The notes beneath the pieces are model-generated. The model was not told the DNA's origin and did no database searches. It worked only from the letters and a program-made list of their open reading frames with translations. 64,000 nt of DNA from an uncultured Desulfovibrio sp. (GTDB lineage: Bacteria > Desulfobacterota > Desulfovibrionia > Desulfovibrionales > Desulfovibrionaceae), in contig CAZFCC010000010.1 of assembly GCA_964517635.1 (NCBI GenBank), positions 7,812 through 71,811 on the forward strand, read 5' to 3'. Numbering within the stretch: the first letter of the stretch is position 1; each line of letters begins with the position of its first letter. Below, one piece after another: positions 6,903-63,070 of the stretch. The position numbers were made by a program, and so were the translations under genes.

Positions 6903-6918
6903 ATGTTGTTGCTGAACT

Positions 6919-7944: not shown

Positions 7945-8130
7945 CGGACTGCGCTCTGCCGGACAGAGCTCTCCGGACTGTGTCTCCTGACAGAGTTCTG
8001 CAGGGCTGTGTTATTCTGACAGTGTTCGGCCGGACTGTGCACTGCCGGACTGCGCTCTGCCGTAAAGAGTTCGGACGTAAAGTGTTCGGCCGGACGGCGC
8101 TCTCCGAATAGAGTTCAGCTGGACAGAGCT
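7945..8130. repeat. Degenerate 13-15 bp tandem array, ~13 units (consensus ~CGGACWGNGYTCTGC)
   Basis: Units at 7945, 7960, 7974, 7987, 8002, 8016, 8031, 8046, 8061, 8076, 8091, 8105, 8120. Confidence 0.75.
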
Positions 8131-16567: not shown

Positions 16568-16798
16568 TTATCCGGCGTAATTGGCCAGCATGCCTTTGAC
16601 ATTTTCAGGAAGCTCGAGCGCTTTGACAACCATTTCCGTAGGGCCGGGGCCATACGCACTGGCGGCAATCGCCCCGGAGGCAGACAGGGCCATCATACGT
16701 TCGACCATGGTCAGCTCTCTGCCCGCAGCTATCTTGTTGCCGAGGATGCTCAGAACATTTTCGCTGATTCTCAGCGGACTGACAGTGTGGAACTTCAT
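16568..16798 (-). CDS. Hypothetical protein, 76 aa
   Basis: Strong RBS (GAAGGAGG) upstream of the ATG; host-like codon use. Confidence 0.7.
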   Translation of the reverse strand: MKFHTVSPLRISENVLSILGNKIAAGRELTMVERMMALSASGAIAASAYGPGPTEMVVKALELPENVKGMLANYAG

Positions 16799-16952
16799 AG
16801 TATGCTGCCTCCTTCAGTTTCTGAATATGCAAGGCTACAATTTTCGCCGCCATCCCGCAAGGGGCTGAATGCGGCCGCAAAATAGCGAAAAACCCAGCCG
16901 GAGTGGCCGAAGATGCCTGTGCACCGTTATTTTTACGCGCGGCAGCCAAAGC

Positions 16953-46947: not shown

Positions 46948-48891
46948 TCAAGACGCTGCGCTGTTCCCCTTTCGCGCCTGCCACCAGAGCTGAAAAACCA
47001 GCAAAGTCCAGAGGGGCTTGCGCAGGTCTGCCCTGCCCGAAACATGCTCGTCCACAAGGGCGCGCACGGCGGCAGGTTCAAAAATACCCTGCGCCTTGAG
47101 GCTGTCTGCGCTGAGCAGGTCTTCCACAAGTGGGCGCATGCGCCCGCGCAGCCATTCTGCCACGGGAATCTGAAAGCCCCGCTTGTTGCGATACAGTATT
47201 TCCTTGGGTAGCAGGTCGGCAAAGGCCCGCTTGAGCAGCCACTTGCGCTTGAAGCCGTGCAACTTGCGGTTCACAGGCAGGCGGGCGGCAAATTCGGCCA
47301 CATCCTTGTCCAAAAACGGTGCTCGCACCTCAAGGCTATGCAGCATGGAGCAGCGATCCACCTTGACCAAAATATCGTCCAGCATGAACTGGCGCGCATA
47401 CACATGAAAGGCCCGCGCCAGCGGCGCGGCCGCATTGTGGGGCCGCCAATGCTCATACTGTTGGCGCGTGGGCGCAAAGAGGCGCTCCGGCGCAAGAAAA
47501 CCCGGAGCCTGCGCCTTGAAGGGGGAAGACAAAATCTCGGCCTGCATGTCGGGGGTAAAGGCCGTCAGCATGGTTTGCACGCGCTGCCATGCCGGAGCCT
47601 GCGCCGCGCGCAGAAACGTGGCCACCGCCAGGCGCGGATTGATGTATCCGGCGGACGAAGGCAGGCGGCGGGCCAGAGGCTCCACAAGCTTGCGCCGCAG
47701 CACAAGGGGCAAGGCATTATACCACTCCGCCACCTTAAAACCGATATAATGCTCATACCCGGCCCACAATTCGTCTGCACCGTCGCCGCCCAGGGCCACG
47801 GTGACCTTTTGGCGGGTCACGCCCGAAAGCAGCCAGGTGGGCGCCACCGAAGCGTCCGCCATGGGCACATCCATTTTGCTGATAATGCCGGGCAGATTGT
47901 CGGCGCATTCCTCTGCCGAAAGCACGCGCTCGTTGTGGTCTGTGCCAAAGGCCCCGGCCACGATGCGGGCATAACGCGACTCGTCGTAGCTGGCCTCGGT
48001 AAAGCCTATGGAAAAGGTTTTTATGGGCGAGGACGACTGCCGCGCCATCAGCCCTGCCACAATGGACGAATCAATGCCGCCCGAAAGAAAAACACCCAGG
48101 GGCACATCGCTGACCATGCGACGGCGCACGGCCTGGGCCAGCAGGCCCCGCAGTTCTTCGCAAAGTTCGTCGGTGCTGCGGGAGTCGTTTTCGTCCGGCA
48201 CGGGCATATCCCAATAGCGGCCCATGCGCAGGTTACCGCCTTCGAGCATGAGCCAGTGCGCCGGGGGCAGACTCGCCACTTCATCATACACGGTCTGCGG
48301 CGTGGGCACGTATTCATAAGCCAGATAGCGCATAACGGCTTCGGGGCTCAGGGTCAGGCTCAGCCCCATGCCCTGATCGCGCAGGGTTTCAAGAGCCGTC
48401 AGCTCCGAGGCAAAATGCAGCCTGCCCTGTTGCACCGTATAAAAAAACGGTTTTTTGCCAAAGGGGTCGCGCGCGCAAAAAAGGCGCTGCTCCACGGAAT
48501 CCCACAGGGCGAAGGCAAACATGCCGTTGAAGCGGCCGAGACAATCCACACCCCACAAGCGGTAGGCCTCAAGAATGACCTCTGTGTCCGAATTGGTCTG
48601 AAAGCGCGCTCCGGCGCTGGAAAGCTCTTGCTTCAGCTCCGCAAAATTATACATCTCGCCATTATATGTGATGGAATACCGCCCATCTACACTGTGCATG
48701 GGCTGGGCGCCCGTGCCGAGATCAATAATGGAAAGCCGCCGATGCCCGAGGCACAGCGGCCCGCTCAGCCACTGACCTTGGCCGTCCGGCCCGCGGTGGG
48801 CCAGGCGGTCGGTCATGGCTTGCACCCAGTGGAGGGCCTGTGGGTCAAGGGGCGAGGCGTCCAGTTGGCAAATACCGGCTATTCCACACAT
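46948..48891 (-). CDS. asnB: Glutamine-hydrolysing asparagine synthase-like amidotransferase
   Basis: MCGIAG, HRGPDG, HRRLSIID, NGEMYN, LSGGIDSS, GGDGADE and EVRAPFLD. Confidence 0.93.
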   Translation of the reverse strand: MCGIAGICQLDASPLDPQALHWVQAMTDRLAHRGPDGQGQWLSGPLCLGHRRLSIIDLGTGAQPMHSVDGRYSITYNGEMYNFAELKQELSSAGARFQTNSDTEVILEAYRLWGVDCLGRFNGMFAFALWDSVEQRLFCARDPFGKKPFFYTVQQGRLHFASELTALETLRDQGMGLSLTLSPEAVMRYLAYEYVPTPQTVYDEVASLPPAHWLMLEGGNLRMGRYWDMPVPDENDSRSTDELCEELRGLLAQAVRRRMVSDVPLGVFLSGGIDSSIVAGLMARQSSSPIKTFSIGFTEASYDESRYARIVAGAFGTDHNERVLSAEECADNLPGIISKMDVPMADASVAPTWLLSGVTRQKVTVALGGDGADELWAGYEHYIGFKVAEWYNALPLVLRRKLVEPLARRLPSSAGYINPRLAVATFLRAAQAPAWQRVQTMLTAFTPDMQAEILSSPFKAQAPGFLAPERLFAPTRQQYEHWRPHNAAAPLARAFHVYARQFMLDDILVKVDRCSMLHSLEVRAPFLDKDVAEFAARLPVNRKLHGFKRKWLLKRAFADLLPKEILYRNKRGFQIPVAEWLRGRMRPLVEDLLSADSLKAQGIFEPAAVRALVDEHVSGRADLRKPLWTLLVFQLWWQARKGNSAAS

Positions 48892-50414
48892 GATTCTTTC
48901 CAGCACTTGTAATTATTGGTGAATATGCGGGCCAAACGATCATTGTTGGCTTCAGGATCAAACATCTGGGCTGCCAGCAGCCTGCCATTACGGGCCAGTT
49001 GCGCCGCCAAGGCCCTGTCGCCAGCAAGCTGGGCAATGGCCTCGGCCAGGGCTTTGGCATCTCCCGGGGGAACGGCCAGACCTGTCTTGCCATGGCGCAC
49101 CACCTCGGGCAGGGCGTTGACAGTGGTGCTGACCACGGGCAAGCCGTAGGCCAGCGCCTCGATAACCGTGTTGGGGATGCCGTCGCGGCGGCCCGAGGCG
49201 TGTACCACGCAGGGCGCGGCAAAAATATGGTGCTCCCCGAGCAGCCGGGGCAGTTCATTGTGCGAAATCAGGCCGGGCATGGTCACGTGGCCTTCCAGCT
49301 TGAGCTCCTTGTGCAAACGCATCAGCTCTGCCTGCATGTTGCCAAGGCCCATGGCCTTGCCGCCGCCGCCCGCCAGCGTCAGCCTGAAGTCCAGCCCCTG
49401 TTCGCGCAGAATCCCGCAGGCCCGCAGCAAAACGTCAAAACCCTTGGTAACGTCAAAGCGCCCAAGCGCCAGCAAACGCACGGGCCGGGGCATGGCCTCG
49501 GGCGCGGCAGAAGGCCGGGCTTCTTCCAGGGGCGAAACGAGGCCAGCATAGCCGCCCGAAGCATCGCTCGCAGGCACGGGCGCAGGCCCAGACATAACGG
49601 CAGCTCCAGGCCCGGAGGCTGCAACAAGCGCTGCCCCAGACGCTGTCACAGACGCTGCCACAGACGCTGTCACAGACGCTGTCACAGGCGCTGCACCAGA
49701 CGCTGCCTCCGCGGCGGCTTCGCTTTCGCCCACCAGCGACGGCAGGGTCAGGCCGTTATAAACAAGCTCCACCTTGCCCTTGGCCTGTCCCCTGTCAAAG
49801 CTTTCGATACGCCCCTTGTCGGCGGCATTATTGGCGCGCACAAGAAAGGCCGCGTCCAGTTTGTCGCCAAGATCCGGGTCAGCAGGCTCAAGGTTGTCGC
49901 CCCGCGCGCAGGTGGCAAAGGGCAGCCCGGCAAGACTGCCGGCCACCCAGGCTGCCGTGGCTGTGCCACGCGGCCAGGGGGCGTAAATCATGTCGATGCC
50001 AGCCTCTGTCAAACGACGGGCCAGGTAAACGCCAGCACAAAAGGCCCAAAGATTTTCGCCAAAAGTCTCGATGCTGCGCCAGCGGCGGAACATGGTGCGC
50101 CGGAAAAGCCTTAGCAGGCGCACGGGGCGCGTAAACATCTGCCGCAGCAGTTCCGCCAAAATGACTGGTAGCGCACGCGTGCCCATAGTTATGGTCTCGC
50201 GCGCCACGCTGCGCATTTCTGTGGAACAGTGGCGCAAATTGGGGCCGTACAGGCTGTAAACCGCAACGGGAAGGCGCTGGCGCAGGCCCTGCACCTCGCG
50301 AAATATAAAAGGCTGGGTGAAAAGAGGATACCAGAGCAGCACACAGGCCACATGGGGCAAGCCCGCAGCGAATGGCGGTGGGGTGGATTCTTCGCCTGTT
50401 CTTTTTATTGTCAT
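48879..50414 (-). CDS. GT4 (GT-B) glycosyltransferase with an internal repeat insertion
   Basis: LLWYPLFTQPFIFRE, GRF..TKG, DGIPNTVIEA and PEVV..G..G. Confidence 0.9.
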   Translation of the reverse strand: MTIKRTGEESTPPPFAAGLPHVACVLLWYPLFTQPFIFREVQGLRQRLPVAVYSLYGPNLRHCSTEMRSVARETITMGTRALPVILAELLRQMFTRPVRLLRLFRRTMFRRWRSIETFGENLWAFCAGVYLARRLTEAGIDMIYAPWPRGTATAAWVAGSLAGLPFATCARGDNLEPADPDLGDKLDAAFLVRANNAADKGRIESFDRGQAKGKVELVYNGLTLPSLVGESEAAAEAASGAAPVTASVTASVAASVTASGAALVAASGPGAAVMSGPAPVPASDASGGYAGLVSPLEEARPSAAPEAMPRPVRLLALGRFDVTKGFDVLLRACGILREQGLDFRLTLAGGGGKAMGLGNMQAELMRLHKELKLEGHVTMPGLISHNELPRLLGEHHIFAAPCVVHASGRRDGIPNTVIEALAYGLPVVSTTVNALPEVVRHGKTGLAVPPGDAKALAEAIAQLAGDRALAAQLARNGRLLAAQMFDPEANNDRLARIFTNNYKCWKESCVE

Positions 50415-50598
50415 TGCCTGCTCCTGAGCGTCTGCAAGGGGCAAATCCATAACTTTCTATGTCCGGGCATGTACCTTGTTTCAAAGACAAAATGCCCTAA
50501 GATAATGCGGGATGCAACCAGCGTAGGGCCGTGTGGATTGCGCCGAAGACCACCTGTAAAAATGGAGTGCACCATTGAAACGCGCAACACGGCAACGC

Positions 50599-51624
50599 TT
50601 ATGTGCAACAGGCCCAATCGTTGGGCCCGGCATCTGCGGCCCGGAGCAGACCGCTGCTTTCGGGAGCGGCGGGGCCCAGGGTTTCGCGCAACTGATCCAT
50701 GGTCAGGCAGCGCACGTTCCAGCGGGCCATGAGCCAGTCTGTCCAGGCCTGTATCTTGTTCATGAGCCTGTCCACAGCAGCGGCATCGGGCAGATGCGGC
50801 GCGCCGCCCGGCATCATTTCTGAAGAATGCCAGGTAAGGGACAAAACCCGGCCCCCCCGAGCCACAAACAGCCGGGTTATGGCCTGCATGGCCCATAAGG
50901 GGTGATAGACGGGTAAAAGACTCAATGCACCCCAGTTTTTGAATCCGGGACGCAGGCGCGGCGCAGCGCGGCGCAGCGCGGCGGGCAAACACGGTAAAAG
51001 CGGAGTAACGCTGAGGGGCACTTCAAAAATACGGCCTTCCGGCGTGGATACCCAATACGGATCGCGCGGCGCGTTAAAATGATCCGGCCCGGCCAGCGGG
51101 CTGACCCCACAATGCAGCGGGCGCACCGAGGCGTCTACCAGAATGCCAGCTTGAGCCAGCAGCGGCCAGAGGCTGCGGTGCAAGTCCCAGCGGCCCATGC
51201 GAAACGATGTCAGCGGCGCGCTCTGAAAATCACGCCCGGCAGCCATGAGGGTTGCGAGCTTGGCGGCCATGAGGGGAGCGGGAACCGCGGCGGCAGGAAC
51301 GCTGGCGGCATTGTCGCCAAGGGCGGCGTCGGCATGGGGCCCATCAAGGGTCAGGGGCGGCGTGTTCCAGTGGTGCAAATGCGCGCCGATTTCCGCCCCG
51401 TGGCTGTCGCGGGCATGGGCCAGAGCCTGACGGGAAGGCGCATGGGCGAGCACGCTGTGTGCGCAGAACAGCGTAGGGCGCACCCCCCGCTCGTACAGCG
51501 GGGCAAGGCGCGTGAGGCTGGCGGTATTGGCCATGGAATAGTCCCGGCGGGCGTACTGCCCGCCAAACAGCCCTTCTTCTTCCACATCCAGACTGACAGC
51601 GAGATATATATCCGGACGGCTCAT
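50599..51624 (-). CDS. Polysaccharide deacetylase-like (WalW-type) protein
   Basis: SLDVEEE, EIGAHLH.WNTPP, SFRMGRW and LTWHSSE; ATGA overlap with the upstream GT. Confidence 0.8.
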   Translation of the reverse strand: MSRPDIYLAVSLDVEEEGLFGGQYARRDYSMANTASLTRLAPLYERGVRPTLFCAHSVLAHAPSRQALAHARDSHGAEIGAHLHHWNTPPLTLDGPHADAALGDNAASVPAAAVPAPLMAAKLATLMAAGRDFQSAPLTSFRMGRWDLHRSLWPLLAQAGILVDASVRPLHCGVSPLAGPDHFNAPRDPYWVSTPEGRIFEVPLSVTPLLPCLPAALRRAAPRLRPGFKNWGALSLLPVYHPLWAMQAITRLFVARGGRVLSLTWHSSEMMPGGAPHLPDAAAVDRLMNKIQAWTDWLMARWNVRCLTMDQLRETLGPAAPESSGLLRAADAGPNDWACCT

Positions 51625-52979
51625 GCGCCCTCTTCCGCCGTGCCGCTTGCGGCAAAATTCCGGCCCGAAGCGCTGTGGTCGCTGGGGTGCGCCTCGTCGG
51701 CGCGGGCACATTCCGTTACGTACAAGTCGTAGACGGCCTTAATGTTGCGCTCGGGATCAAAAAGTTTTTCCACCAGGGCGCGCCCCGCCTGGGCCATGCC
51801 CAGGGTGGCCTCCCGGTCAGCAAGCATGCGGCGCACGGCATGGGCCAGCGCGCGCGGATCGCGCTGCTGCACCAGCAGACCGGTTTCGCCGTCAATGATC
51901 ACCTCGGAAATGCCGCACACGTCGGTAGCAATAACCGGCATGCAGTGCGAAAGGGCTTCTATGATCACGTTGGGGATGCCGTCGCGATCGCCATTGGTGT
52001 GAACAACGCTGGGCATGATAAGCATGTCATGATTCAGCATAAAGTCGCAAATTTTATCGTGGGGGATGAAGCCCGGCATGTCCACAACGCCGGCAAGGCC
52101 CAGCTCATCGCGCATTTTTGTCAGCTTGCGCCGCCAGTTGCCGTCTCCCACAAGGGTCAGGGTCACCGGCACGTTTTCACGCCGCAGCCGAGCCATGGCT
52201 GTGAGCAGTTCGGGAAAACCCTTGGTGCGGGCAAAGCGTCCCACAGCCAGCAGGCGATAGGGCGCCCGCATAGGCATGGCGCACTGACCACCGGGCCGAA
52301 ACGTGAGGCTGTTATAGATGGCATGCACCTTGTCTTTGCCCTCAGGCGGACAAAAACTGCGCAGCCATTGCACGTTGGTCTGGTTATTGGTGCGGATAAA
52401 GAGCGCATCGCGAGATTTTTCTCGCAACAGGCCGTCTTCGGGATAAATATCTCCGGCTCGGCCCGTAAAGGCAAAAGGAATGCCAGACATGCGCGAAGCA
52501 ACCCAGGCGGCAGTGGCTGGCCCGTTGGCCCAGGCCGCATGGATCAGCTGCACGCCGTCCTGACGACACTGCTCGGCCAGCAGAAAACCCGCCAGAAAAC
52601 ACCAGACATTTTCGCCTTCGGCCTCAAGATTGCGCATGCGCCGGAAAAAGCCCTCGCGCATGAGCCGCCAAACCTTGCCCGGCTGCTGGCGCAAAGCGCG
52701 CCAAAAGGCGGCCAGAATCCTGCCCGCAGCTTTAAAGCCCATGCGCCGCACTTGCCCGGCGTAGGCGCGCATCTCTTCGCTGCAACCCTTGAGGTTTTCG
52801 CCATACATGCTGTAGGCATACACCGGAAGGCCCCGTTGCATGAGCTGCACAATCTCACGAAATATAAAAGTCTCTGAAGACAAGGGGAACCATAGAAGGA
52901 CGTAGGCGATAACCGGGGGCACTGCCCGCCGGTCGCGCTCTGCTCCCGCTTTTGTGGCGTGGCCACTAATAAAAGACAT
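51621..52979 (-). CDS. GT4 glycosyltransferase (paralog of 48879-50414)
   Basis: LLWFPLSSETFIFRE, GRFARTKG and DGIPNVIIEA. Confidence 0.9.
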   Translation of the reverse strand: MSFISGHATKAGAERDRRAVPPVIAYVLLWFPLSSETFIFREIVQLMQRGLPVYAYSMYGENLKGCSEEMRAYAGQVRRMGFKAAGRILAAFWRALRQQPGKVWRLMREGFFRRMRNLEAEGENVWCFLAGFLLAEQCRQDGVQLIHAAWANGPATAAWVASRMSGIPFAFTGRAGDIYPEDGLLREKSRDALFIRTNNQTNVQWLRSFCPPEGKDKVHAIYNSLTFRPGGQCAMPMRAPYRLLAVGRFARTKGFPELLTAMARLRRENVPVTLTLVGDGNWRRKLTKMRDELGLAGVVDMPGFIPHDKICDFMLNHDMLIMPSVVHTNGDRDGIPNVIIEALSHCMPVIATDVCGISEVIIDGETGLLVQQRDPRALAHAVRRMLADREATLGMAQAGRALVEKLFDPERNIKAVYDLYVTECARADEAHPSDHSASGRNFAASGTAEEGA

Positions 52980-53033
52980 GCTGATCTCCGCAGAAACGAG
53001 AGCCGGGCCATAAGGCCCGGCCGGAGTGTTGTT

Positions 53034-54356
53034 TTATTCGCCCAGGGATTCTTCGGCGTGTTCGCGTTTGTATTTTTCAACAATTGCTTGCGCCTTGGGA
53101 ATCTCTTCTTTCACGGCGTCAAGCGCCGTGCGGATATGCTCTTCCGTATGTGCGGCTGAAAGGAAGAAACGCAGCCTGTCCGTGCCTTCCTTGACTGCAG
53201 GGAAGGTGATGGGCATGACGTAGATGCCGCGTTTGAACAGGGCGTTGGACAAAAAGCCCGCCACCATGGGGTCGCCCACCATAACAGGCACAATGGCATA
53301 GCCCTGGGCCGCGCCCGTATCAAGGCCGATGCTCGAAGCGTATTCCACAAAAAACTTGGAAATGCTCTGCAGCTTGTGCACCCGTTGCGGTTCACGCAGC
53401 ATGATGTCCAGGGCCTTTTGGCAGGCCACGGCAATAACCGGGGGCATGCCCACGCTGAACACAAAGCCCGGCGAACCATATTTGAGAAATTCTATCAGCT
53501 CATGCCGACCGGCGATAAAACCGCCGCAACCGCACATGGACTTGGAGAGCGTGCTCATCCACATGTCCACTTCTGTGGGGTCGATGCCGAAATGCTCGTG
53601 AGCGCCGCGCCCGGTTGCGCCGAGCACGCCCAGCGAGTGGGCCTCGTCAACCAACAACATGCAGTCATACTGCTTTTTCAGCTGAATGATGCGGGGCAGA
53701 TCGGGGATATTGCCGTCCATGCTGAACAGGCCTTCGGTAACGATAATGGCCCGTTTGTGGTCGGCGCGCTTGGCCTTGAGCACTTCTTCAAGAGCGTCGC
53801 AATCGTTGTGATTATACGAGTAGCGCGCTGCATGCGAGAGGCGGGCGCCCTGAACCAACGAGTTGTGGGCCAGGCCGTCATGAAAAATGGCGTCGCGGTG
53901 GCCGAGCAAAAAGCCCAGTGTGGATACGTTGGTGGCGTGGCCGCTGACGTACACGATACTGTCTTCAACACCATACAGGTCGGCAAAGGCGCGCTCCAGC
54001 GCACGGTGGGGCGGGCGCTCGCCGCCCACAAGGCGGCTGGCTCCGGCAGAAGTTCCGTACACGGCGGCAGCTTCGGCGACGACCTCGGTTATTTCCGGAT
54101 GGGCGTTGATATCCAGATAATCGTAGGTGGAAAAGTTCAGATATTCTTTGCCTTCAATAAACGTGGTGGCCTTGGCCGCGCGCTCGTGGCAAAGAAAAAG
54201 AGGATTTTCCATCCCCATCTTGGCTCCCATCTCCACAAGCCGGTCGAAGGCGAGCTTGGAACGCATGCGACTAAAGCCGCTGGCGGAGCTTTCAGTGGCG
54301 GCAGCGGTTGTTGATGCCGCCTCTTTTCCGGCCTGACAGGAATGGTCTTTCTTCAT
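53034..54356 (-). CDS. PLP-dependent alpha-oxoamine synthase (WcbT/RkpG-like)
   Basis: NFSTYDYL, GTSAGASRLVGGERP, VSGHATNV, DEAHSLG and TLSK. Confidence 0.88.
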   Translation of the reverse strand: MKKDHSCQAGKEAASTTAAATESSASGFSRMRSKLAFDRLVEMGAKMGMENPLFLCHERAAKATTFIEGKEYLNFSTYDYLDINAHPEITEVVAEAAAVYGTSAGASRLVGGERPPHRALERAFADLYGVEDSIVYVSGHATNVSTLGFLLGHRDAIFHDGLAHNSLVQGARLSHAARYSYNHNDCDALEEVLKAKRADHKRAIIVTEGLFSMDGNIPDLPRIIQLKKQYDCMLLVDEAHSLGVLGATGRGAHEHFGIDPTEVDMWMSTLSKSMCGCGGFIAGRHELIEFLKYGSPGFVFSVGMPPVIAVACQKALDIMLREPQRVHKLQSISKFFVEYASSIGLDTGAAQGYAIVPVMVGDPMVAGFLSNALFKRGIYVMPITFPAVKEGTDRLRFFLSAAHTEEHIRTALDAVKEEIPKAQAIVEKYKREHAEESLGE

Positions 54357-54688
54357 GCCTTGTCCTCTTAAATTTGTCCAAAAAACGCGCCAATTCGCAC
54401 CCTGCAGCAAGCCGCCGGGCACTGAGCGCAACTTTGTAAGGATCTAGTATAGCCAATGCGCGGAAGTATGGCAAGTGCGGAATAACAAATACACGGCAGG
54501 CCGCAAAAGCGGCTACCGGCAAGGCATCAGGGTGCTGCGGCCGTTTTGTTGCGCGCTTTTCCTATGCGTAGTTACGGCTGCTCTTCTGGACAAGCACTAC
54601 GATATACCCTAACATAAGACTCTTAGCCGATCTGGGCCACGGTTCGGCCCCTTTTTTGACCAACCGCGCTCCACAGGCTTAAAACTAT

Positions 54689-57600
54689 ATGCAGCAAGAC
54701 CCTGCTCCTCAATACGGCGACTGTCGTATAACACAAAGCACCGCTCTTCCCGGCGGCCTGCTGGCCGTGCCTCTTCCGAGCATCGCGTTTTCATGCCCCG
54801 CTCCGGAAGGCTCCAACCTCGACCAGCAAGATTCCTCTGCGGTCGACATCAGTGCCCAGGATATGGTTCAACTGTGTTTCAAGTGGCTTACACACATTGA
54901 AACTCCCGGGCCTGTCCTGCTCTGGCTTTGCTGGCACGAGCAAAACACCCCCGCCCCGCTGGCCCTGCCTCTGGTGCTGGCTCTTCAGGGGCTGCAAAAT
55001 CTCTGGCGCATCGGGCCCATCCGCTTCCAGTGCGAACCCTTTATGCCCGGCCAGATGTTGGAGGCTGAAAAACTCCTGCGCGACATGCCGCAGCACGGCG
55101 AAAGCACAGTAGAAGCCCCCAACGGCAAGCCCACAAAAACGCCGCTGCGCTCCCCTTCGGGCGCCGATCAGATTATGCGGCCCGTGACAGGACGCGTGCC
55201 GACCATTCTTTTGCTGAACTTTACGAGCGATGAAGAAAGCAGGCTGCATTGCCATCCGCTGTTGCTGCGCTTGCCGGCGCTCACTCCGCCCTGCTGCGAC
55301 ACGCTCATGTGCCGCAAAAGCCCGCCCCGCATCGCTCCGGAGGAAAAAACGCCTGCGCCTGCGCCGCACACGAGCCAACCGCAGCCCACGGTGAACGCCA
55401 TGGCCATGCCTGCGCCGCACACGAGCCAGCCGCAGCCCACGGTGAACGCCATGGCCATGCCTGCGCCCGGCGCTTGCGGCGTCTCTGGTGTTCCCGGCAT
55501 CCCCGGTATCCCCGGCATCCCCGGCGCCTGTGCAGATCCCCACACTCCCGACGCATACGCAGCACCTGGAGAGATTTTTCTTGACGGTGTGCGCTATACG
55601 GAACTTCCTCAGGACGGCCTACTCTGGCGCATAGGCGCCGTCAACCCCCTATGGCGTCAGGAATTGCTCGTGCTGCCGCACAATCCCGACGCTGCCGCCC
55701 TCGCGGCCCTGGAGCCGCGCGGCCTGTGGCTGGCCCCTGTTCAAACGCCGCCGCCCCTGGCCGTCATGTGCTGCGGGCTGGGTTCGGTCTGGCCGGGCAT
55801 GGGCCGCGAACTGTACGACAGTTTCCCCGTTGCGCGCGCGGCCATGGATCGCATCGCCGCCGTGGCTGACTGGGACGTGCTTGGCCTTATGGACGAAAAG
55901 GATGTGGAAAAAATCAGCCTTACCCGCTGGCAGTCGCCCTACCTTTTCATGCTCGAATTTGCGCAGTGGAGCGTGCTTTCTTCTCTGGGCCTGCGGCCTT
56001 CGCTCTTTTGTGGCCACAGCTTGGGCGAGATTATCGCCCTCTGCCTCAGCGGCATCGTTGAGCCCGAGGCGGCCTGGTACATGCTCGACACCCGCGCTGT
56101 GCACATGGCCGAACTGGAAGCCGCAGCCACGCGCGAAACAGGCATGATGGCCGTCCACGCCAACATTGAAGTCGTTGAAGAAATCCGCGCAACCTGGCCG
56201 TCGCTCTACGTATCCAACTATAATACGCCCCAACAGTTCATCCTCAGCGGCCCGCGCGAGGCCCTGCAAGAAGCCCGCAAAAGCCTGCGCAAGCGGCGTA
56301 TACCGGCCATTGTGCTCAACGTGAGCCTGGCTTTTCACCATCCGAGCATGCGCGTGTTGCGCGATCTTTCGCAGCGCCGCCTCAATGCCCTGGAAATGCA
56401 CGCGCCGAACATCCCCATACTGAGCTGTATCACCACCGACTTTTACCCCAACGACCAGCCCTCCATTTGCCAGCACATGACTGATCTGGATGAAAACTCC
56501 GTGCGCTGGACAGAATGCGTGCATGCCATGTGGAACAGAGACGGCATCCGCCACTTTGTCGAACTGGGGCCGCAGGATACCATTTGCGGGCTCACTCGTG
56601 ACAACGAATCCCGGGCCCTGTGCCTGCCAGCCGGGCGCAAGGGCAAAGAAGTCGAGGGCATGCGCCAGACATGCGCCCGCCTCTACTCCCTGGGGCATCT
56701 GCGCGATGATTCCATCCGCGCGCGCGTTACCTCTATGCGTGAGGGGCGTGATGCCGCGGCTGCCGCACGCGCGCCGCTGCCCCACTGCGGCCTTATACCC
56801 GTCGGAACCCCAGACGCCGCCTGCCCCGTAGAAAGCGTCGCCCCAATGGTGCCCGACGCCCAAACACCGACGCCACTTGAAACACAGACCAACGCCCAAA
56901 CACAGGCCGATGCCCCTTCAAGCACGACCGACGCGGCCCCCACAGCGGCCAACGATTTTTCCGCCGACGCAGCTCTGCGCGTGGTTATGGACGTGCTGTC
57001 CCGCGCCAGCGGGCGGGCAGTGGAAGACCTGCGCCCTGAAATGGATCTGCGCTATGACCTGGCCCTGCGCTCCAGCCGTTTCCCCCTCATCATTCAGGAA
57101 GTGGAAAAAGCGCTGGATATTATCGTCAACTTTGAAGATCTGCTTAAAGTTTCGACCATAGGCGATCTGGCGCGCATTCTGGGCGGCAATCCCCTTGCCA
57201 GCAACGAACAGGAACGCACGGCGGCAGGCGCAAGCTCTTTCAGCCGGGCGGCCAGCGCCTGCGCCCCTTTATGCCGATTCGCGCCACTGCTGCGGCCCTG
57301 GCCGGAAGAAGACGCTCCGGCGCAAGCGAGCACTCCGGCGCAAACGAGCACCCCGGCTGAAGCCAGCATTCCGGCACAAGCCAGTGCAATCCTTGCAAAA
57401 AGTGCCCCAGCCCAGTTACCGCTGGATCCCTGTGGCCAAGGGCTGCCCATACACATGGGCGATGTGCTGGCCCTGCTCTTTTTCGAGCCAGAGCTTTTAC
57501 CTGCGCTCATGAGCGGACTCGCGCCGCTGGGCTGCGTGTTGGGCGTGCCCAAAGATCAGCTTGAAGCCTGCGCGCCCCTGGCCAAGGCCGGTTCGCGCCT

Positions 57601-59170
57601 TGTGCCCCTTGACCTGCGCATACGCACGCCCCAAAGCGCCACAGAGGCGCTGGCCCTTGCCGACGAAACCCGTATGGCCCTTGATGCCTTAGCCCGCAAC
57701 GAAGGCCGCATAGACGGACTTGTCTTTACGCCCGCCGTCATCGCAAAGGCCAACGGAACCGCATGCGGCCCGGCCGCTTCCGATGCCGAATTTGCCGCCG
57801 CCCGCATGCCCGAGGTGCTGGATGCCGCCATGCGGGCCGCCCTGAGCCATGGCCTGCGCCATGCCTGCCTGTGCAGCCTCATGCTGCCTGCGCAGGAAAA
57901 TATGTATTGCGACGGCCCGCTGGAAAAACACCTTGAAGCCCTTGGCCAAGAGTCGGGCATAGCCGTGCGTGCCGTGCGCCTGCTTGAACCCACCCTGCGC
58001 GCCGGGCTCAACGAATGGGGCGACCTGCTGGCCCGCGAACTGCTGCTTGGCACGGCAGAGCATGTGTTCTGGGCACGCCACAACACCCTGCCGACCATGC
58101 ACACACCAGGCCACCGGGCGGATCATCCCGGCGCAAGCGCGGGACATTCCCCCACAGGCTCGGGCCTGGCCCTGATCGAGCGGCCCCGCCGCTACCCCCT
58201 GGTTTTTCCCGATCCGCGCCCGCCTTACCGCGGCACGGCCACGCTGTTTCAAGGCGGCTGCCATTACTCGCGCTTTGCAGACGCCGACCTGGCCCAGCAC
58301 GGCGGCCAGCCGGGCAATGGCCTTGGCGAAAACACGCCATGGCTGCCGGCCGGCCGCGCCCTTGCGGCCCTGCTGGAGGCATCCAGCCTGTGGTTGCCCT
58401 GGCTTACGGTCACCGGTTTTTCAGATCTGCGCTTTCATGAGCCGCCGCTGTTGCCGCCCGGCCTCACACGCGAATGCCGCCTGACCATGGAGGCCGAACC
58501 CTGGCTCATGCAGGACGGCGTTATGACCCGCATGTGTCGGGGCGAACTGGCTGTGCGCGAAGTCACGCCCAACGGCAGACACTTGGGCCAGTATACCCCC
58601 GTGGCCGGGGGCATGACCCTGCTGGCTGCGAACAATGGGCAGGTTCCCCCCTTGTGGCCGCACGAAGCCCATATTTTTGAAAAAAATGGTGGTTTCGCTG
58701 TTCCCGGTCTGGACACCGAACTTTTTTATGAGGCTCTTGGCCTTGGCGCCCCCTGGCGCATGTTGCGAGATTTTTTGATCTTACCAGAGCACAAATACGC
58801 GGCGCGCCTGAATCCACAGCATACGGCCATTGCCCCCGAGGGCAATAAAGGCTATGCTGATGTTCTGAATGTGGTGGAGGGAATGGTGCAGGCTGCCTGG
58901 CTGGCCATAGCCCAGGGAGCTGAAAATACCAACGCGGACATAGCGGCAGTGGCCCAGGCGGTGCGCTGCTGGCGGTTGCACGCGGCTGGTTTTATCCGAT
59001 TCGGGGCCGAAAGGGGCAAAGGGCCGTGGCATGTGGTGCTGCGCCGTTCCTGGTCGGATTCCCGTCTGTTACGCTTTGACGGCCAGGCCGTTGACGAGCG
59101 TGGCCGTATTTTTCTTACCCTTCATCATCTGGAATTTGACCGGCGGGACCACAAACCCACCGCGCTTTAG
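54689..59170 (+). CDS. PKS/PUFA-synthase-like multidomain protein: AT - ACP-like - degenerate KR - DH; no KS
   Basis: CCGLGSVWPGMG, GHSLGE and SLAFHH (AT); DLALRSS (ACP-like); RIDGLVF; LAQH..P and EGMVQAAW (DH-like); start uncertain. Confidence 0.8.
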   Translation: MQQDPAPQYGDCRITQSTALPGGLLAVPLPSIAFSCPAPEGSNLDQQDSSAVDISAQDMVQLCFKWLTHIETPGPVLLWLCWHEQNTPAPLALPLVLALQGLQNLWRIGPIRFQCEPFMPGQMLEAEKLLRDMPQHGESTVEAPNGKPTKTPLRSPSGADQIMRPVTGRVPTILLLNFTSDEESRLHCHPLLLRLPALTPPCCDTLMCRKSPPRIAPEEKTPAPAPHTSQPQPTVNAMAMPAPHTSQPQPTVNAMAMPAPGACGVSGVPGIPGIPGIPGACADPHTPDAYAAPGEIFLDGVRYTELPQDGLLWRIGAVNPLWRQELLVLPHNPDAAALAALEPRGLWLAPVQTPPPLAVMCCGLGSVWPGMGRELYDSFPVARAAMDRIAAVADWDVLGLMDEKDVEKISLTRWQSPYLFMLEFAQWSVLSSLGLRPSLFCGHSLGEIIALCLSGIVEPEAAWYMLDTRAVHMAELEAAATRETGMMAVHANIEVVEEIRATWPSLYVSNYNTPQQFILSGPREALQEARKSLRKRRIPAIVLNVSLAFHHPSMRVLRDLSQRRLNALEMHAPNIPILSCITTDFYPNDQPSICQHMTDLDENSVRWTECVHAMWNRDGIRHFVELGPQDTICGLTRDNESRALCLPAGRKGKEVEGMRQTCARLYSLGHLRDDSIRARVTSMREGRDAAAAARAPLPHCGLIPVGTPDAACPVESVAPMVPDAQTPTPLETQTNAQTQADAPSSTTDAAPTAANDFSADAALRVVMDVLSRASGRAVEDLRPEMDLRYDLALRSSRFPLIIQEVEKALDIIVNFEDLLKVSTIGDLARILGGNPLASNEQERTAAGASSFSRAASACAPLCRFAPLLRPWPEEDAPAQASTPAQTSTPAEASIPAQASAILAKSAPAQLPLDPCGQGLPIHMGDVLALLFFEPELLPALMSGLAPLGCVLGVPKDQLEACAPLAKAGSRLVPLDLRIRTPQSATEALALADETRMALDALARNEGRIDGLVFTPAVIAKANGTACGPAASDAEFAAARMPEVLDAAMRAALSHGLRHACLCSLMLPAQENMYCDGPLEKHLEALGQESGIAVRAVRLLEPTLRAGLNEWGDLLARELLLGTAEHVFWARHNTLPTMHTPGHRADHPGASAGHSPTGSGLALIERPRRYPLVFPDPRPPYRGTATLFQGGCHYSRFADADLAQHGGQPGNGLGENTPWLPAGRALAALLEASSLWLPWLTVTGFSDLRFHEPPLLPPGLTRECRLTMEAEPWLMQDGVMTRMCRGELAVREVTPNGRHLGQYTPVAGGMTLLAANNGQVPPLWPHEAHIFEKNGGFAVPGLDTELFYEALGLGAPWRMLRDFLILPEHKYAARLNPQHTAIAPEGNKGYADVLNVVEGMVQAAWLAIAQGAENTNADIAAVAQAVRCWRLHAAGFIRFGAERGKGPWHVVLRRSWSDSRLLRFDGQAVDERGRIFLTLHHLEFDRRDHKPTAL

Positions 59171-59240
59171 CGCGTCCTCGCCGCTACAACCGTGACCATA
59201 CACCAACGCGCTGGCCGCGCGAGCCTGTAAAGGGTACCAG

Positions 59241-60707
59241 ATGCCACATAAAGCACGCACTTTTCTTCCAGCACGAACCTGCCTTTCGCTGCTGCTCGTT
59301 CTGACCTTTCTTTTTTCAGCCTGCGCCTCCAACAAGGCGGGGCTCAAATCGCCAGAACTACCCGCCAGACACTGGCTGGAAGAGGCCCCCGGCGTGCCGG
59401 TGGAAAACAAGGGCAAGCTTGAAGCCGCTGTTCCCAATCTTTATGATCCCTCCAAGGTCTTCACTTTTGAAGACTGCGTTTTTCTTACCATCCAGCAGTC
59501 GCCGCTCTTGGTCAACAGCGCAGTAGACCTGGAGATCAAGCGCGTTGCCCTTACCAACGCCGTGTGGAAATACCTGCCCGAACCGCGCATGACCATGCAG
59601 GTCAGCAACAACCTCACGCGGCTTAATATGGACCACAAGGACACCCCCGGCGATTACGGGCGCACAAAACTCAGCGTGGGCTTTTACGCGGCCTTTCCCA
59701 ATCCGGTGGCCACCTATTTTGAACATCAGGTGCAAAAGGCCATGGTCAACCTGGCCATCTCAACCCACCGCAAGGCCGTGGGCGAAGCCATCTACAAGAT
59801 CGCTCAGGCCTATCTACAACTCCAGGCGCAGAAAAGAATCGTCAAAGCCCAGAAAGATATACTGCCCATCGGCAAAGAACTGATTTCCTACTGGCAGCAG
59901 GTGGAGGCCGTTGACGGCCGCCAAGGGGTTTCTCTCAATCTGGCCATGCAGCACCAGCGGGAGCTTGAGCTCATGCTGGAGCAGACCAAGATGAAAGAAA
60001 CCATGCAGCTCACCCAGCTTAAAATTCTGGCGGGTGTGGATCCCCAGCAGCGCCTGGATGTAGACGCCGCCAGCGCCGAAGAGCTTCTGCGCAGCTTCAA
60101 TGGGCGCAAGCTCAAGTGGGACGAGCGCTGGACTACCACCGAAGACGACTTGTTGCTGCGCGGCCAGATCAAGCTGGGCGACTATAACATCATGGTTGCC
60201 TGGGCGCAGTACATCCCCGACATGAGCATTGCCGTCAACAACAATCCGCCGTCCGGTCAGTACCAGCCCGCCAGCGGCAGCGAAGACACCTTTTTGCATC
60301 TGAACTTCAGCTTCCCCCTGCTGGACTGGGGACGCCGTTATCGCGGTGTGCAAACCGCCCGCATGCAAAAGGCGCAGGCTTTTCACGAAATGGCCCGCAA
60401 GCGCACCGACTATTCCAACCGGTGGCTGCAAGCCGAACAAAATGTGGCCCTGGCCGAAACCGAACTCAAGCTGGCGCGCACGCGCTTTGATACGGCGGCC
60501 ATGCAGTTCAAAGAAGCCCACATTTCTTTCAACGAAGGCATAGCCGAACTGCCCGCCGTGGCCGACAGGCAGGAAGCTATGGTGCAGGCCCAGGTGGCCC
60601 TTATCCGCGCCGAGCTGACCTGTGAACTGGCCCAGCTTGAATGGATGTATCTTTCCACGGCGCTTCAGGAACATTTCCTCGGCCTACCCGCCAAAGAGGT
60701 GCTGTAA
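59241..60707 (+). CDS. TolC/OMF-family outer membrane lipoprotein
   Basis: Lipobox FSAC; helical repeats; LNFSFPLLDWG motif. Confidence 0.8.
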   Translation: MPHKARTFLPARTCLSLLLVLTFLFSACASNKAGLKSPELPARHWLEEAPGVPVENKGKLEAAVPNLYDPSKVFTFEDCVFLTIQQSPLLVNSAVDLEIKRVALTNAVWKYLPEPRMTMQVSNNLTRLNMDHKDTPGDYGRTKLSVGFYAAFPNPVATYFEHQVQKAMVNLAISTHRKAVGEAIYKIAQAYLQLQAQKRIVKAQKDILPIGKELISYWQQVEAVDGRQGVSLNLAMQHQRELELMLEQTKMKETMQLTQLKILAGVDPQQRLDVDAASAEELLRSFNGRKLKWDERWTTTEDDLLLRGQIKLGDYNIMVAWAQYIPDMSIAVNNNPPSGQYQPASGSEDTFLHLNFSFPLLDWGRRYRGVQTARMQKAQAFHEMARKRTDYSNRWLQAEQNVALAETELKLARTRFDTAAMQFKEAHISFNEGIAELPAVADRQEAMVQAQVALIRAELTCELAQLEWMYLSTALQEHFLGLPAKEVL

Positions 60708-61651
60708 TGCGAGCCCTTGCCCGTCCATGCTCCCCCAGCGCACGTGGTCTGCTTTTGACGCTGGCCCTGCTGTGCAGCTTGGCTTTTGCCGTTGCCGCCA
60801 CTGCGGCCGAAGGCGGCAAAAGCAGTGTAACCATTCTCACCGGCAAAGTGGTGACCACGGTGACGCGCGCCATCCCCATGCCCTTTAACGGGGTGGTGGA
60901 CGACGTGCTTGTCAAACCAGGCGAAGCAGTTGAAGAAAACGCCCCCCTCATGCGCTACCACCTGCACGAAGACGCCGAGCGCACCTTGCAACGTGAAGTC
61001 ATGCAAGGCCCCGGCACAGAAAGCCTTAAAAGCCAGGTGCTTGACCTTGAGCGCAGGCTGGCCGAAACCATCGCTCAGCGCAACAAGGCGCGCCAGCTTG
61101 CCGCCTCCGGTCTTGGCTCCCGCCAGGCCTCGGGGCGCCTTGAAGAAGACGTGACCTCCTTGCAGCGTCGCATCGAACTCACCAATATTACGATCAAAAA
61201 AGCTGAAAATAGCTTTGCCATTCGCCTGAAAGAGCTGAGCAGCTACTTTGGTCAGGAAATCAAGGAAGGCGAACTTTTGCCTGAAACCCTCACCCTGACC
61301 TCCCCCATCAAGGGCTACGTGCTCTCGCTTGACGCCACTCTCAACCCCGGCACCCTGCTGCAAGCAGGGAGCGTGCCCGTCAGAGTGGGGCAGCTTGACC
61401 CTGTACTGATTCAGGTGCCTGTGTACGAAGCCGAAATCAGCGCCATCTCGGAAGGGGACAAGGTCGCTGTGGAAATTCCCTCGCTCGGCAACAAGGTTTT
61501 TCCCGGCAAAGTAAACGAAATCGCCTGGGTTTCCAGCGACATGAGCGTATCGAATCCGTCGTATTACACGGTAGAGATCACTGTGCCCAACCCTGATCTG
61601 GAACTCAAGCCCGGCTTCAAGGCCGTTGTGCGTTTCGGGGGCGGCAGGTAA
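60707..61651 (+). CDS. Membrane-fusion (HlyD/RND periplasmic adaptor) protein
   Basis: Lipoyl halves GVVDDVLVKPGE and LTSPIKGYV, coiled coil, LKPGF; TAATG overlap with TolC. Confidence 0.85.
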   Translation: MRALARPCSPSARGLLLTLALLCSLAFAVAATAAEGGKSSVTILTGKVVTTVTRAIPMPFNGVVDDVLVKPGEAVEENAPLMRYHLHEDAERTLQREVMQGPGTESLKSQVLDLERRLAETIAQRNKARQLAASGLGSRQASGRLEEDVTSLQRRIELTNITIKKAENSFAIRLKELSSYFGQEIKEGELLPETLTLTSPIKGYVLSLDATLNPGTLLQAGSVPVRVGQLDPVLIQVPVYEAEISAISEGDKVAVEIPSLGNKVFPGKVNEIAWVSSDMSVSNPSYYTVEITVPNPDLELKPGFKAVVRFGGGR

Positions 61652-61660
61652 AGCCCAGGC

Positions 61661-63070
61661 ATGAAGCTCAAGAGCATACCCCGCAGGCTCGGTTACATTC
61701 TGGGCGCGCAATGGACGCGCGACCTGGCGTGGACGGCCTTTACCATTTTGCTGGCCCGCCGCAGCCCAGACATTATGGGCCAGATCGTCTTGGCCCTCAC
61801 CTTTGGCTATTTGGTAAAAACCATTGCCGATGTGGGGCTCAACGATTTCCTGCTGTCCACCTTTGCCCGCCGTGAAGGCCGCCCTCGGGCGCTGCTTGGC
61901 GAGGTCACATGGCTCAAAATTGTGGTGCTGGTGCTGGCTTTGGTCACCACATGGCTCGTCACCGGCTGGCAAGACTACAGCCCGGAACTACGCCTCATTG
62001 TGCTCTGTATCGCTGCGGGCCTCGGCCTTGACGGCGTAAGCGATTCGTTTTTTGCCCTGTGTCAGGCCCGTGGGCGGCAAGATGTCGAAATGCGCATCCG
62101 CGTTCCGTCGGCTCTCATCGGCATAGGCTTTGGCATTGCTTGCGTGATAATGGGCGCACCGCCCATTATCATTGCCCTGTATAAACCCATCGAATCCGTC
62201 CTCTGCATCATTTTCGCGCTGGTGGCGCTAGGGCGCAACCCGCTGGCCGGTGTCGGCAAATCGGGCATGCTCGACCTGGCGCGCCAGATGAAACACGGCC
62301 TTATTTTTACCTGCATGGCTGCCTGCGCCATGTTCTACAACAAGATCAACGTTATTTTTCTCAAGCAATACGGCGGCAATGCCGACGTGGGCGGCTACGG
62401 CGTTGCCTGGGAAACCATCGAGGGCCTGTCGGTGCTGGTGTCCAGCGCCCTCTTGGGCAAAGTCATATTTCCGCTGCTGGCCAGACACTGGCAACAAGAC
62501 AGGGCAGCCTTCAGCCAGTTGGCGGGGCAGACAGCCCGAACCCTGTGGGCGGCGGCCCTGCCCATCATTTTTCTGATCTGTGTGGAAAGCGACCGCTTTT
62601 TACCCTTTATTTATGGGCATAATTACGAAAGTGCCGTTCGGGCCCAGCAACTGCTTACCCCCTGCCTGGCCACTGCCTTTCTGCATAACCTGGCAGCCTA
62701 CGCCATGATAGGCATGCGCCGCCACCGCCTGTTGCTGGCCTTTTATGTAAGCGGGCTTGTGCTCAACATTATCTGCTGCTTTACGCTCATTCCGGGCATG
62801 CCGCTGGAAGGCGCGGCCCTGTCTTTGACCATCACCAAGGTGTGGGTTGCCCTGCTGACCGTGGGCTTTTTCCAATGGGCCGCCCGCCCCATGAGCGCAG
62901 GACAATGGCTGCTCATGCTGGTGACCATTATGGTGAGCCTGGCCCTGTGGCAGATCACTGGCAAGGTAGCTCCGCGCGAAGTGGCCGAGCTTGTGGGGCT
63001 TGTTCCCCTGCTTGCGCTTTTCTGGCGCTGGCGCCCGCCGCCGCCCTTTGAAGCAAAGACCACCCGATAA
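61661..63070 (+). CDS. MOP-superfamily (Wzx-like) flippase
   Basis: About 12-14 TMs; ADVGLN, DVGGYGVA and LEGAALS patterns. Confidence 0.8.
   Translation: MKLKSIPRRLGYILGAQWTRDLAWTAFTILLARRSPDIMGQIVLALTFGYLVKTIADVGLNDFLLSTFARREGRPRALLGEVTWLKIVVLVLALVTTWLVTGWQDYSPELRLIVLCIAAGLGLDGVSDSFFALCQARGRQDVEMRIRVPSALIGIGFGIACVIMGAPPIIIALYKPIESVLCIIFALVALGRNPLAGVGKSGMLDLARQMKHGLIFTCMAACAMFYNKINVIFLKQYGGNADVGGYGVAWETIEGLSVLVSSALLGKVIFPLLARHWQQDRAAFSQLAGQTARTLWAAALPIIFLICVESDRFLPFIYGHNYESAVRAQQLLTPCLATAFLHNLAAYAMIGMRRHRLLLAFYVSGLVLNIICCFTLIPGMPLEGAALSLTITKVWVALLTVGFFQWAARPMSAGQWLLMLVTIMVSLALWQITGKVAPREVAELVGLVPLLALFWRWRPPPPFEAKTTR

Follow-up and report, generated by a model that had tools for sequence, protein, structure and literature searches.

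An alpha-oxoamine synthase of the SgaB/RkpG clade facing a ketosynthase-less acyltransferase-acyl carrier protein partner in gut Desulfovibrio

The window analyzed in this report is a stretch of 64,000 nucleotides from an uncultured Desulfovibrio sp. (GenBank assembly GCA_964517635.1, contig CAZFCC010000010.1, positions 7,812 to 71,811 of the forward strand), and its subject is a gene for an alpha-oxoamine synthase (hereafter AOS) together with the gene cluster around it. AOS and the divergently transcribed gene of its partner, a 1493-residue protein with acyltransferase (AT) and acyl carrier protein (ACP) domains, are separated by 333 bp. The AOS gene is as follows.

53034..54356, minus strand: alpha-oxoamine synthase of the SgaB/RkpG/WcbT clade, 440 residues (Pfam PF00155, intact catalytic residues, tree)

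The open reading frame (ORF) spans 53034-54431 on the minus strand, and the ATG at 54356 gives a protein of 440 residues, a start matched by the closest homologue (P0002, 440 residues, 97% identity). The protein matched Pfam Aminotran_1_2 (PF00155) with an E-value of 1.1e-47, a match far too strong for chance, and bears the motifs YGTSAGASRLVGGERPPH, YVSGHATNV, VDEAHSLG (with the Asp/His pair) and MSTLSKS (with the lysine for pyridoxal 5'-phosphate, PLP); all motifs quoted in an earlier reading of this DNA, made from the sequence only, were present (GTSAGASRLVGGERP, VSGHATNV, DEAH and TLSK). When aligned with Escherichia coli BioF and Kbl, AOS retained the catalytic His, Asp-x-x-His, Thr-x-x-Lys and the C-terminal Arg in the blocks LAHNS, VDEAH, TLSK and DRLRF, which hold the residues of fold-type I alpha-oxoamine synthases. 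AOS was thus confirmed, at the level of its sequence, as an intact PLP-dependent alpha-oxoamine synthase.

In maximum-likelihood trees (IQ-TREE, LG+C20), AOS grouped with RkpG of Sinorhizobium meliloti, PfSgaB of Pseudomonas fluorescens and all proteins linked to a polyketide synthase (PKS) in a single clade on a very long stem (support 100/99), whose PKS-linked members include proteins from Pseudomonas, Paraburkholderia, Caballeronia and Microbulbifer. BioF, Kbl and ALAS were all excluded from this clade, and membership of AOS in any of these three families was rejected. Nested in the clade is a subclade with full support (100/100), termed type A, which is defined by the arrangement of the window, i.e. 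an AOS at least 65% identical and a partner of 1100-1500 residues across about 330 bp. The identity ranking agreed with the tree (45-63% to PKS-linked homologues from Desulfovibrionaceae, 49% to PfSgaB, 46% to S. meliloti RkpG, 36% to E. coli Kbl, 32% to the genome's own BioF and 31% to E. coli BioF; 31-36% to BioF, Kbl and ALAS overall). Two sequence blocks singled out in the earlier reading are real signatures of the RkpG/SgaB clade in the sequences compared, being GISASASRLVAGERPQH and VSGYLTNV in RkpG, GTSASASRIVAGERPVH and VSGHATNV in Caballeronia, and GTSVSASRLVSGDRPLH and VSGHATNV in PfSgaB, with BioF, Kbl and ALAS differing at both positions. The assignment of AOS to the SgaB/RkpG/WcbT clade is therefore near certain, and the view that it is of the WcbT/RkpG type, not BioF, was borne out by both phylogeny and identity.

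All curated models for BioF, Kbl, ALAS, CqsA and canonical serine palmitoyltransferase (SPT) scored AOS under their cut-offs, and membership in these families was rejected on this ground as well. The best NCBIfam match was the bioF model TIGR00858 (346.8 bits, cut-off 426.45), and AOS stayed below the cut-offs for Kbl (318.5 versus 460 and 281.9 versus 493 bits) and ALAS (232 versus 338.6 bits). It also fell below those for canonical SPT (NF047600, NF047599 and NF047603: 289.5 versus 640, 248.7 versus 500 and 191.7 versus 670, respectively), for which the comparison rests on hidden Markov model scores and PDB E-values, the trees containing no canonical SPT sequence. The same pattern of sub-threshold bioF and SPT scores was given by RkpG (bioF, 360 bits) and by a PKS-linked Desulfovibrionaceae protein, and NCBIfam holds no model for the SgaB/RkpG clade. 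On the other hand, a second alpha-oxoamine synthase of the genome, on contig C2, scored 448.6 bits, over the bioF cut-off, and adjoins a gene for BioW (6-carboxyhexanoate-CoA ligase) that is likewise above cut-off. This BioW-BioF pair, of the pimelate-CoA ligase route, occupies C2:147091-148973 of genome G000 (6091-7973 in locus L040) and is flanked by proA, nadD and an ADP-heptose epimerase gene.

The sequence-only reading would have fallen had AOS grouped with (and complemented) BioF in a genome with no further bioF; the genome does hold another, genuine bioF, and AOS stands apart from it in the tree. Its remark that no biotin genes lie nearby held for the annotated ORFs around AOS (46948-63070, the part of the window scanned for them), among which there was no bio gene; no tdh was seen near AOS either. 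Mis-annotation as bioF, which it had expected, is indeed found among relatives, whose public names span 'aminotransferase class I/II', '8-amino-7-oxononanoate synthase' and 'PigH'. For AOS of the SgaB/RkpG clade, the labels 'bioF', 'PigH' and generic 'aminotransferase' are uninformative or wrong.

Genetic work of the 1990s defined the enzyme family under the names RkpG and WcbT. When annotated records were searched by tblastn, PKS-linked AOS genes came out on top, among them a Sinorhizobium gene; in S. meliloti this gene comes after a PKS of 2502 residues and before genes for a short-chain dehydrogenase/reductase (SDR) and a KpsS-like protein. Since this locus corresponds to the rkp-1 region (region names after PMC7902896), we identified the gene as rkpG. 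The PKS-AOS pair was also found within capsule loci on plasmids of Paraburkholderia, Caballeronia, Pseudomonas and Microbulbifer. In the Paraburkholderia/Caballeronia plasmid capsule loci (L032, 9013-9927; L034, 9045-9971), a gene for an LpxC-like 'UDP-3-O-acyl-GlcNAc deacetylase' sits between PKS and AOS, and a gene of the lipoteichoic acid synthase family lies upstream.

The family was defined biochemically in 2025 through SgaB (PMC12134224). In P. fluorescens MYb115 (Peters et al., Nat Commun 2025), PfSgaB acts as an SPT specific for L-serine, which it joins to an acyl thioester to form 3-ketodihydrosphinganines; together with the iterative PKS PfSgaA, it gives rise to C24-C28 sphinganines and phosphoglycerol sphingolipids (PMC12134224; the sequence used here was taken from its Fig. 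S6). L-serine-specific SPT activity in the clade has been shown for PfSgaB, the sole member studied biochemically. Since a member of its own clade makes PKS-derived sphinganines in this way, the sphingoid-like chemistry suggested for AOS in the earlier reading gains support.

We then considered the partner, whose parts are listed below; KR and DH denote ketoreductase and dehydratase, and pLDDT denotes the predicted local distance difference test score of the AlphaFold (AF2) model.

54689..55768, plus strand: variable N-terminal extension and pre-AT region, residues 1-360 (repeats, weak conservation)
55769..56572, plus strand: AT, residues 361-628 (PF00698, E 8e-34)
56981..57178, plus strand: ACP, residues 765-830, motif DLALRSS (PF00550, 21.9 bits, cut-off 20.8)
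57401..58123, plus strand: SDR/KR-fold domain, residues 905-1145 (AF2 pLDDT 88.3, Foldseek)
58181..59170, plus strand: PKS-type DH with a double hotdog, residues ~1165-1493 (AF2 pLDDT 84.7, Foldseek)

Pfam detected only the AT and the ACP, and the two C-terminal domains were recognized in AF2 models built from 38 homologues. These homologues show almost no variation in three AT motifs that suggest a malonyl-type enzyme (GHSLGE, an Arg 25 residues past the active-site Ser, and LAFHH) or in a Ser-Ser pair of the ACP; conservation among the 38 extends over Ser/Arg/His of the AT, Ser of the ACP and His of the DH. The SDR-fold domain matched FabI and SDRs in Foldseek (E ~1e-6, TM 0.5-0.6) and has neither the Gly-rich NAD(P) motif nor YxxxK, and is predicted to be inactive. 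The DH matched the DH domains of CurF, CurJ and RzxB (E ~6e-13, TM-target ~0.7), with a conserved His1204 and a Glu at the position usually held by Asp. In-frame tandem repeats (period 51 bp, 2.2 copies; 9 bp, 3.7 copies; 18 bp, 3.7 copies), located at 55357-55525 and 57315-57381, encode Pro/Ala/Gln-rich low-complexity linkers, and those of 51 and 9 bp belong to the region of residues 1-360. The N-terminal 280 residues are only 47-49% conserved in relatives whose AOS is 92-93% identical and are absent from most others. As a candidate for a decayed ketosynthase (KS), this extension was compared by BLASTP with the KS-containing homologue P0261, which gave nothing significant.

A HMMER search over 1.84 billion representative proteins returned only 107 clusters matching its C-terminal region. 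Among the matches listed, most were 1000-1250 residues long, and four relatives of this size that were scanned with Pfam contained no KS. Two longer relatives, P0261 and P0278 (~1800 residues), have the order KS-AT-ACP-KR-DH with an intact Cys-His-His triad in the KS, and both P0261 and P0267 keep a Pfam-recognizable KR at the position of the SDR-fold domain. The contig of P0261 (L041) follows the order of the window, i.e. the conserved protein of unknown family described below, a family 4 glycosyltransferase (GT4) and AOS facing the synthase, an outer-membrane protein, an adaptor and a flippase; that of P0267 (L042) has AsnB and AOS facing the synthase, outer-membrane protein, adaptor and flippase. 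The AOS proteins of both contigs fell inside the type A clade (that of L041 is 71% identical to the AOS of the window). These KS-containing relatives in a shared gene order show the partner to be a KS-less, KR-dead derivative of a KS-AT-ACP-KR-DH synthase. Origin by deletion from the highly reducing PKS found next to other Desulfovibrionaceae AOS genes was rejected, the AT being just ~25% identical and the domain order different. Against the PfaA subfamily model (cut-off 1010 bits), the partner, with no KS, scored 104 bits and the KS-containing P0261 scored 320.8 bits, also under the cut-off.

The remaining genes of the cluster lie on both sides of the AOS-partner pair.

51621..52979, minus strand: GT4a glycosyltransferase, directly downstream of AOS (PF00534, E 3e-34)
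50599..51624, minus strand: conserved protein of unknown family (invariant motifs DVEEEGLF, GAHLHHWNTPP, FRMGRW, DASVRPL and WHSSE)
48879..50450, minus strand: GT4b glycosyltransferase with an Ala/Ser/Val-rich insert (PF13692, PF00534)
46948..48906, minus strand: AsnB-like glutamine amidotransferase, cluster core (PF00733, E 6e-106; TIGR03108, 591.8 bits, below cut-off)
59241..60707, plus strand: TolC-like outer-membrane factor (PF02321)
60641..61651, plus strand: HlyD-type periplasmic adaptor (PF16576, PF13437)
61661..63070, plus strand: Wzx-like flippase of the MOP family (PF13440, PF01943)

Type A loci accordingly present AOS, a GT4, the conserved protein, a second GT4 and the AsnB-like gene on one strand, and the partner, TolC-like protein, HlyD-type adaptor and Wzx-like flippase on the opposite strand. 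The order of partner facing AOS-GT4 was kept in all five long loci and in 11 short loci wherever the flank was long enough, and a GT4 follows AOS in 15 of 16 loci from the same genus or near it; GT4b is variably present among relatives, and in L019 and L042 the AsnB-like gene directly adjoins AOS. The conserved protein (~340-370 residues) has its likely ATG at 51624, overlapping the stop codon of GT4a, and had no sequence match in Pfam, NCBIfam or PDB except a faint one to DUF3473 (E 0.22); 'deacetylase' is only a hint for it. At 59241-63070, the TolC-like protein and HlyD-type adaptor are operonic with a MOP flippase instead of an ABC, RND or MFS pump, and this trio was conserved in all type A loci, including L041 and L042 with their KS-containing synthases.

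Of the 24 genomes in the genus, 23 carry AOS at 66-93% identity, and in 22 of these it is free of stop codons. Across 151 genomes of the family, that of the window included, the C-terminal region of the partner was found in 12 and a type A AOS (here at least 70% identical) in 12, with both in 11, and none of the genomes with only a PKS-linked AOS had the partner. Synteny and co-occurrence thus show that AOS is locked to its partner. The term 'stand-alone' used for AOS in the earlier reading has to be dropped in this respect, for the enzyme is unfused, yet its adjacent partner (AT-ACP-SDR-like-DH) is conserved and co-occurs with it.

The PKS-linked AOS genes of Desulfovibrionaceae, termed type B (45-63% identical to AOS), directly follow a PKS of 2500-2660 residues, for which Pfam scans of two (L021 and L026) gave the order KS-AT-DH-MT-ER-KR-ACP (MT, methyltransferase; ER, enoyl reductase). 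The PKS-AOS pair of L021 is flanked by KpsC, KpsS, GNAT, SDR and sulfatase-like genes. Type A and type B are paralogous systems, because some genomes, for instance G007, carry both. In the tree, type A was a monophyletic group (100/100) with the type B proteins of L026 and L028 as its sister group (98/94), and L026 has homologues of the GT4 and the conserved protein of the window. Also beside these homologues in L026 are genes for a radical SAM/SPASM protein, a GT2 and a 597-residue Glyco_trans_1_3 protein (16758-17972). Seventeen PKS-AOS pairs from Desulfovibrio, and others from related genera, have been counted as SgaAB homologues (Supplementary Data 4 of PMC12134224).

Two possible signals border the AOS gene.

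54446..54474, minus strand: promoter-like site TTGCCA-17-TATACT upstream of AOS (consensus scan, 10/12 matches)
53001..53022, minus strand: GC-rich 9-bp hairpin between the AOS stop and the GT4a start (terminator-like scan)

A gut metatranscriptome contig of 1580 nt (run X2), derived from a relative that is ~92% identical, spans its AOS gene from end to end and corresponds to 52847-54422 of the window. It begins ~24 nt 3' of the promoter-like -10 box, reads through the hairpin after the AOS stop and runs into the GT4 gene as far as 52847. This RNA evidence is weak, coming from just two metatranscriptome runs with contigs, one of them from the ~92% identical relative, and the promoter-like site with the RNA contig end at 54422 is suggestive only. 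An Rfam scan of the window at gathering thresholds returned no riboswitch or other known RNA.

What chain the ACP could carry is constrained by the rest of the genome, which is 99.97% complete. Its sole ketosynthase gene is a FabF-type ORF of 440 residues, so that the ACP-bound chain must be either malonyl itself or made with the housekeeping type II fatty acid synthesis enzymes. KpsC and KpsS (Capsule_synth, PF05159), found in type B loci and in rkp-1, were not found in this genome, and the AOS product is therefore not tied to a Kps capsule. The lipid anchor that the earlier reading assigned to AOS is conjectural in a genome that, unlike rkp/wcb loci, has neither a PKS ketosynthase nor KpsC/KpsS.

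On this basis, we propose that the AT of the partner would load malonate onto its dedicated ACP, and that a chain would be built or captured there with the aid of the housekeeping type II enzymes. A plausible route to a long chain is that, after malonylation of the ACP by the cis-AT, FabF condenses a housekeeping acyl chain onto it and the product is processed by FabG in trans and by the cis-DH. A decarboxylative Claisen condensation catalyzed by AOS would then transfer the chain to an amino acid, by analogy with PfSgaB most likely L-serine, and so free it as a 3-keto sphingoid-type amino-ketone. This amino-ketone may be decorated by both GT4 enzymes together with the conserved protein and the AsnB-like amidotransferase, and the Wzx-like flippase, the adaptor and the TolC-like protein may bring the product to the cell surface. 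That AOS unloads the ACP onto an amino acid, probably L-serine, and that the amino-ketone is then glycosylated and exported, is the reading we favor and hold to be probable; the lipid nature of the product, its amino acid and its fate are our inference. We put forward only tentatively, as a rather doubtful possibility, the more specific KS-less route to a glycosylated sphingoid-type lipid in gut Desulfovibrio, with FabF transferring and extending the chain on the malonylated dedicated ACP. There, the retained DH would leave a 2-enoyl or otherwise processed chain, AOS would release it onto serine, and the glycosylated product would leave by the unusual three-part system of MOP flippase, adaptor and TolC-like protein.

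Several observations weigh against the favored reading. The cluster has no KS, ER or active KR and the genome offers FabF only, so a long acyl chain is not assured, and the malonyl-type motifs of the AT alone would yield a short polar product. No KDS-reductase-type SDR (KDS, 3-ketodihydrosphinganine), GNAT or ceramide-synthase gene was seen in the cluster (46948-63070), unlike in Sga and rkp loci, and the amino acid specificity of AOS cannot be read from its sequence. The literature searched contains no report of such a lipid in Desulfovibrio, and the metatranscriptome RNA contigs may contain DNA carry-over.

The lack of a KS, ER and active KR in the cluster, FabF as the only KS of the genome and the malonyl-type AT motifs also suit a different product, for the ACP might bear nothing beyond malonyl, or the acetyl left once the hotdog domain has decarboxylated it, and AOS might make from it a small polar amino-ketone (acid) rather than a lipid. 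The AsnB-like enzyme would then amidate a free carboxylate, and the molecule would end up either as a decoration on an exopolysaccharide or as a small secreted compound. There are precedents for the separate steps: in SxtA, loading of malonate is followed by its decarboxylation and condensation with an amino acid, and the hotdog proteins YiiD/MadB decarboxylate malonyl-ACP. In the cluster itself, this fits the carboxylate-binding Arg beside GHSLGE and LAFHH in the AT, the place of the AsnB-like gene as a core neighbor even where GT4 genes are missing (L019 and L042), and the exopolysaccharide-type genes (EpsE-like GT4 and Wzx-like flippase). However, the nearest characterized relative, PfSgaB, takes long acyl chains; in the KS-containing relatives with identical synteny, KS and KR both appear active, which points to chain building in the ancestral pathway; and the DH has kept its catalytic His and Glu, though it would have no substrate on an ACP that carries malonyl only. 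We therefore judge a short-chain product unlikely, while taking it as the most serious competitor.

Far less credible is that the cluster is a decaying remnant, in which the pathway ceased to function after loss of the KS and decay of the KR and AOS has no role left. The missing KS, the SDR-fold domain devoid of cofactor and catalytic motifs, and the repeat-rich, fast-evolving N-terminal extension of the partner are what such decay might look like, but AOS persists almost throughout the genus, mostly with no stop codon and with catalytic residues intact, the active-site residues of the AT, ACP and DH are nearly invariant, the nine-gene synteny is kept across genera and transcript contigs exist. 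We consider this explanation very improbable. A role for AOS in biotin synthesis, as a second BioF (8-amino-7-oxononanoate synthase), is the least believable of all, despite a bioF model as the best match and the names given to some relatives by JGI and UniRef, in view of a sub-cut-off score shared with RkpG, the real BioF beside BioW elsewhere in the genome, the low identity to both BioF proteins, the very long branch between them in the tree and a gene context devoid of bio genes.

Returning to the favored reading, in which AOS releases the ACP-bound chain as an amino-ketone for glycosylation and export, the enzyme family is already known, and what is new is the KS-less arrangement and its set of neighbors. 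No description of this arrangement with GT4, AsnB and TolC/adaptor/MOP-flippase neighbors was found in the literature searched, nor was a sphingoid lipid of Desulfovibrio. Bacterial sphingolipids were long thought to be restricted to a few phyla with canonical SPT, a view broadened in 2025 by the PKS and SgaB route (PMC12134224). AOS brings to the SgaB/RkpG clade a third arrangement, conserved in nearly all genomes of a gut Desulfovibrio genus, in which the PKS is reduced to loader, carrier and dehydratase, and genes for glycosylation, amidation and outer-membrane export take the place of capsule (Kps) genes. The cluster suggests an undescribed surface amino-lipid in gut Desulfovibrio. If the product is an amino-lipid or glycosphingolipid-like, sulfate reducers linked to gut inflammation would bear an unrecognized host-relevant surface lipid; if the KS-less sphingoid route is true, sphingolipid-like molecules in the human gut would have a second source, one outside Bacteroidota, and the partner would represent the first carrier module of a 'chain-capture' kind for an SPT-type enzyme.

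Among known systems, PfSgaB shares with AOS the clade and the signatures HNS, ASRLVxGxRP, SGHATNV and CGGY/FIAG, whereas its gene follows that of an iterative highly reducing type I PKS and its cluster includes an SDR (SgaC). In the window, AOS does not directly follow a PKS, the partner has no KS, ER or active KR, no SDR gene of the RkpH/SgaC type (the proposed 3-KDS reductase type) was found at 46948-63070, and the neighbors are GT4 genes, an AsnB-like gene and the TolC/adaptor/flippase set. An N-terminal amphipathic helix of the 'LIQQALERR' type is present in PfSgaB, RkpG and type B proteins, whereas the alignment showed type A AOS without it; this segment of the PKS-linked AOS may be a PKS docking element. 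Type B AOS, for all its identity to the AOS of the window, likewise comes after a large PKS.

RkpG of S. meliloti rkp-1 belongs to the same clade, and its gene has the PKS gene rkpA immediately upstream and the SDR gene rkpH and the KpsS-like rkpJ downstream; WcbT of the Burkholderia wcb capsule loci is likened to AOS by description, its sequence standing outside our comparisons. The rkp and wcb loci are capsule loci with a type I PKS (PMC3908369, PMC7902896). Their modules sit in ABC-transporter (Kps) capsule loci with KpsC/KpsS, whereas the genome of the window has neither these nor a PKS, and its exporter is made up of MOP flippase, adaptor and TolC-like protein. What AOS has in common with BioF, Kbl, ALAS and canonical SPT is the fold-type I superfamily and the catalytic residues.

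PfaA/HglE-like synthases have the domain order KS-AT-ACP-KR-DH, and heterocyst glycolipids are exported by DevBCA-TolC. The partner and its KS-containing relatives resemble PfaA/HglE in the order (KS)-AT-ACP-KR-DH, a likeness of architecture only, and differ from PfaA in their scores far below the cut-off, the absence of PfaC- or PfaD-like subunits and a release by AOS. The cluster also recalls heterocyst glycolipid export in joining glycosyltransferase, adaptor and TolC-like exporter; unlike in DevBCA-TolC, however, the inner-membrane part is a MOP flippase instead of an ABC transporter.

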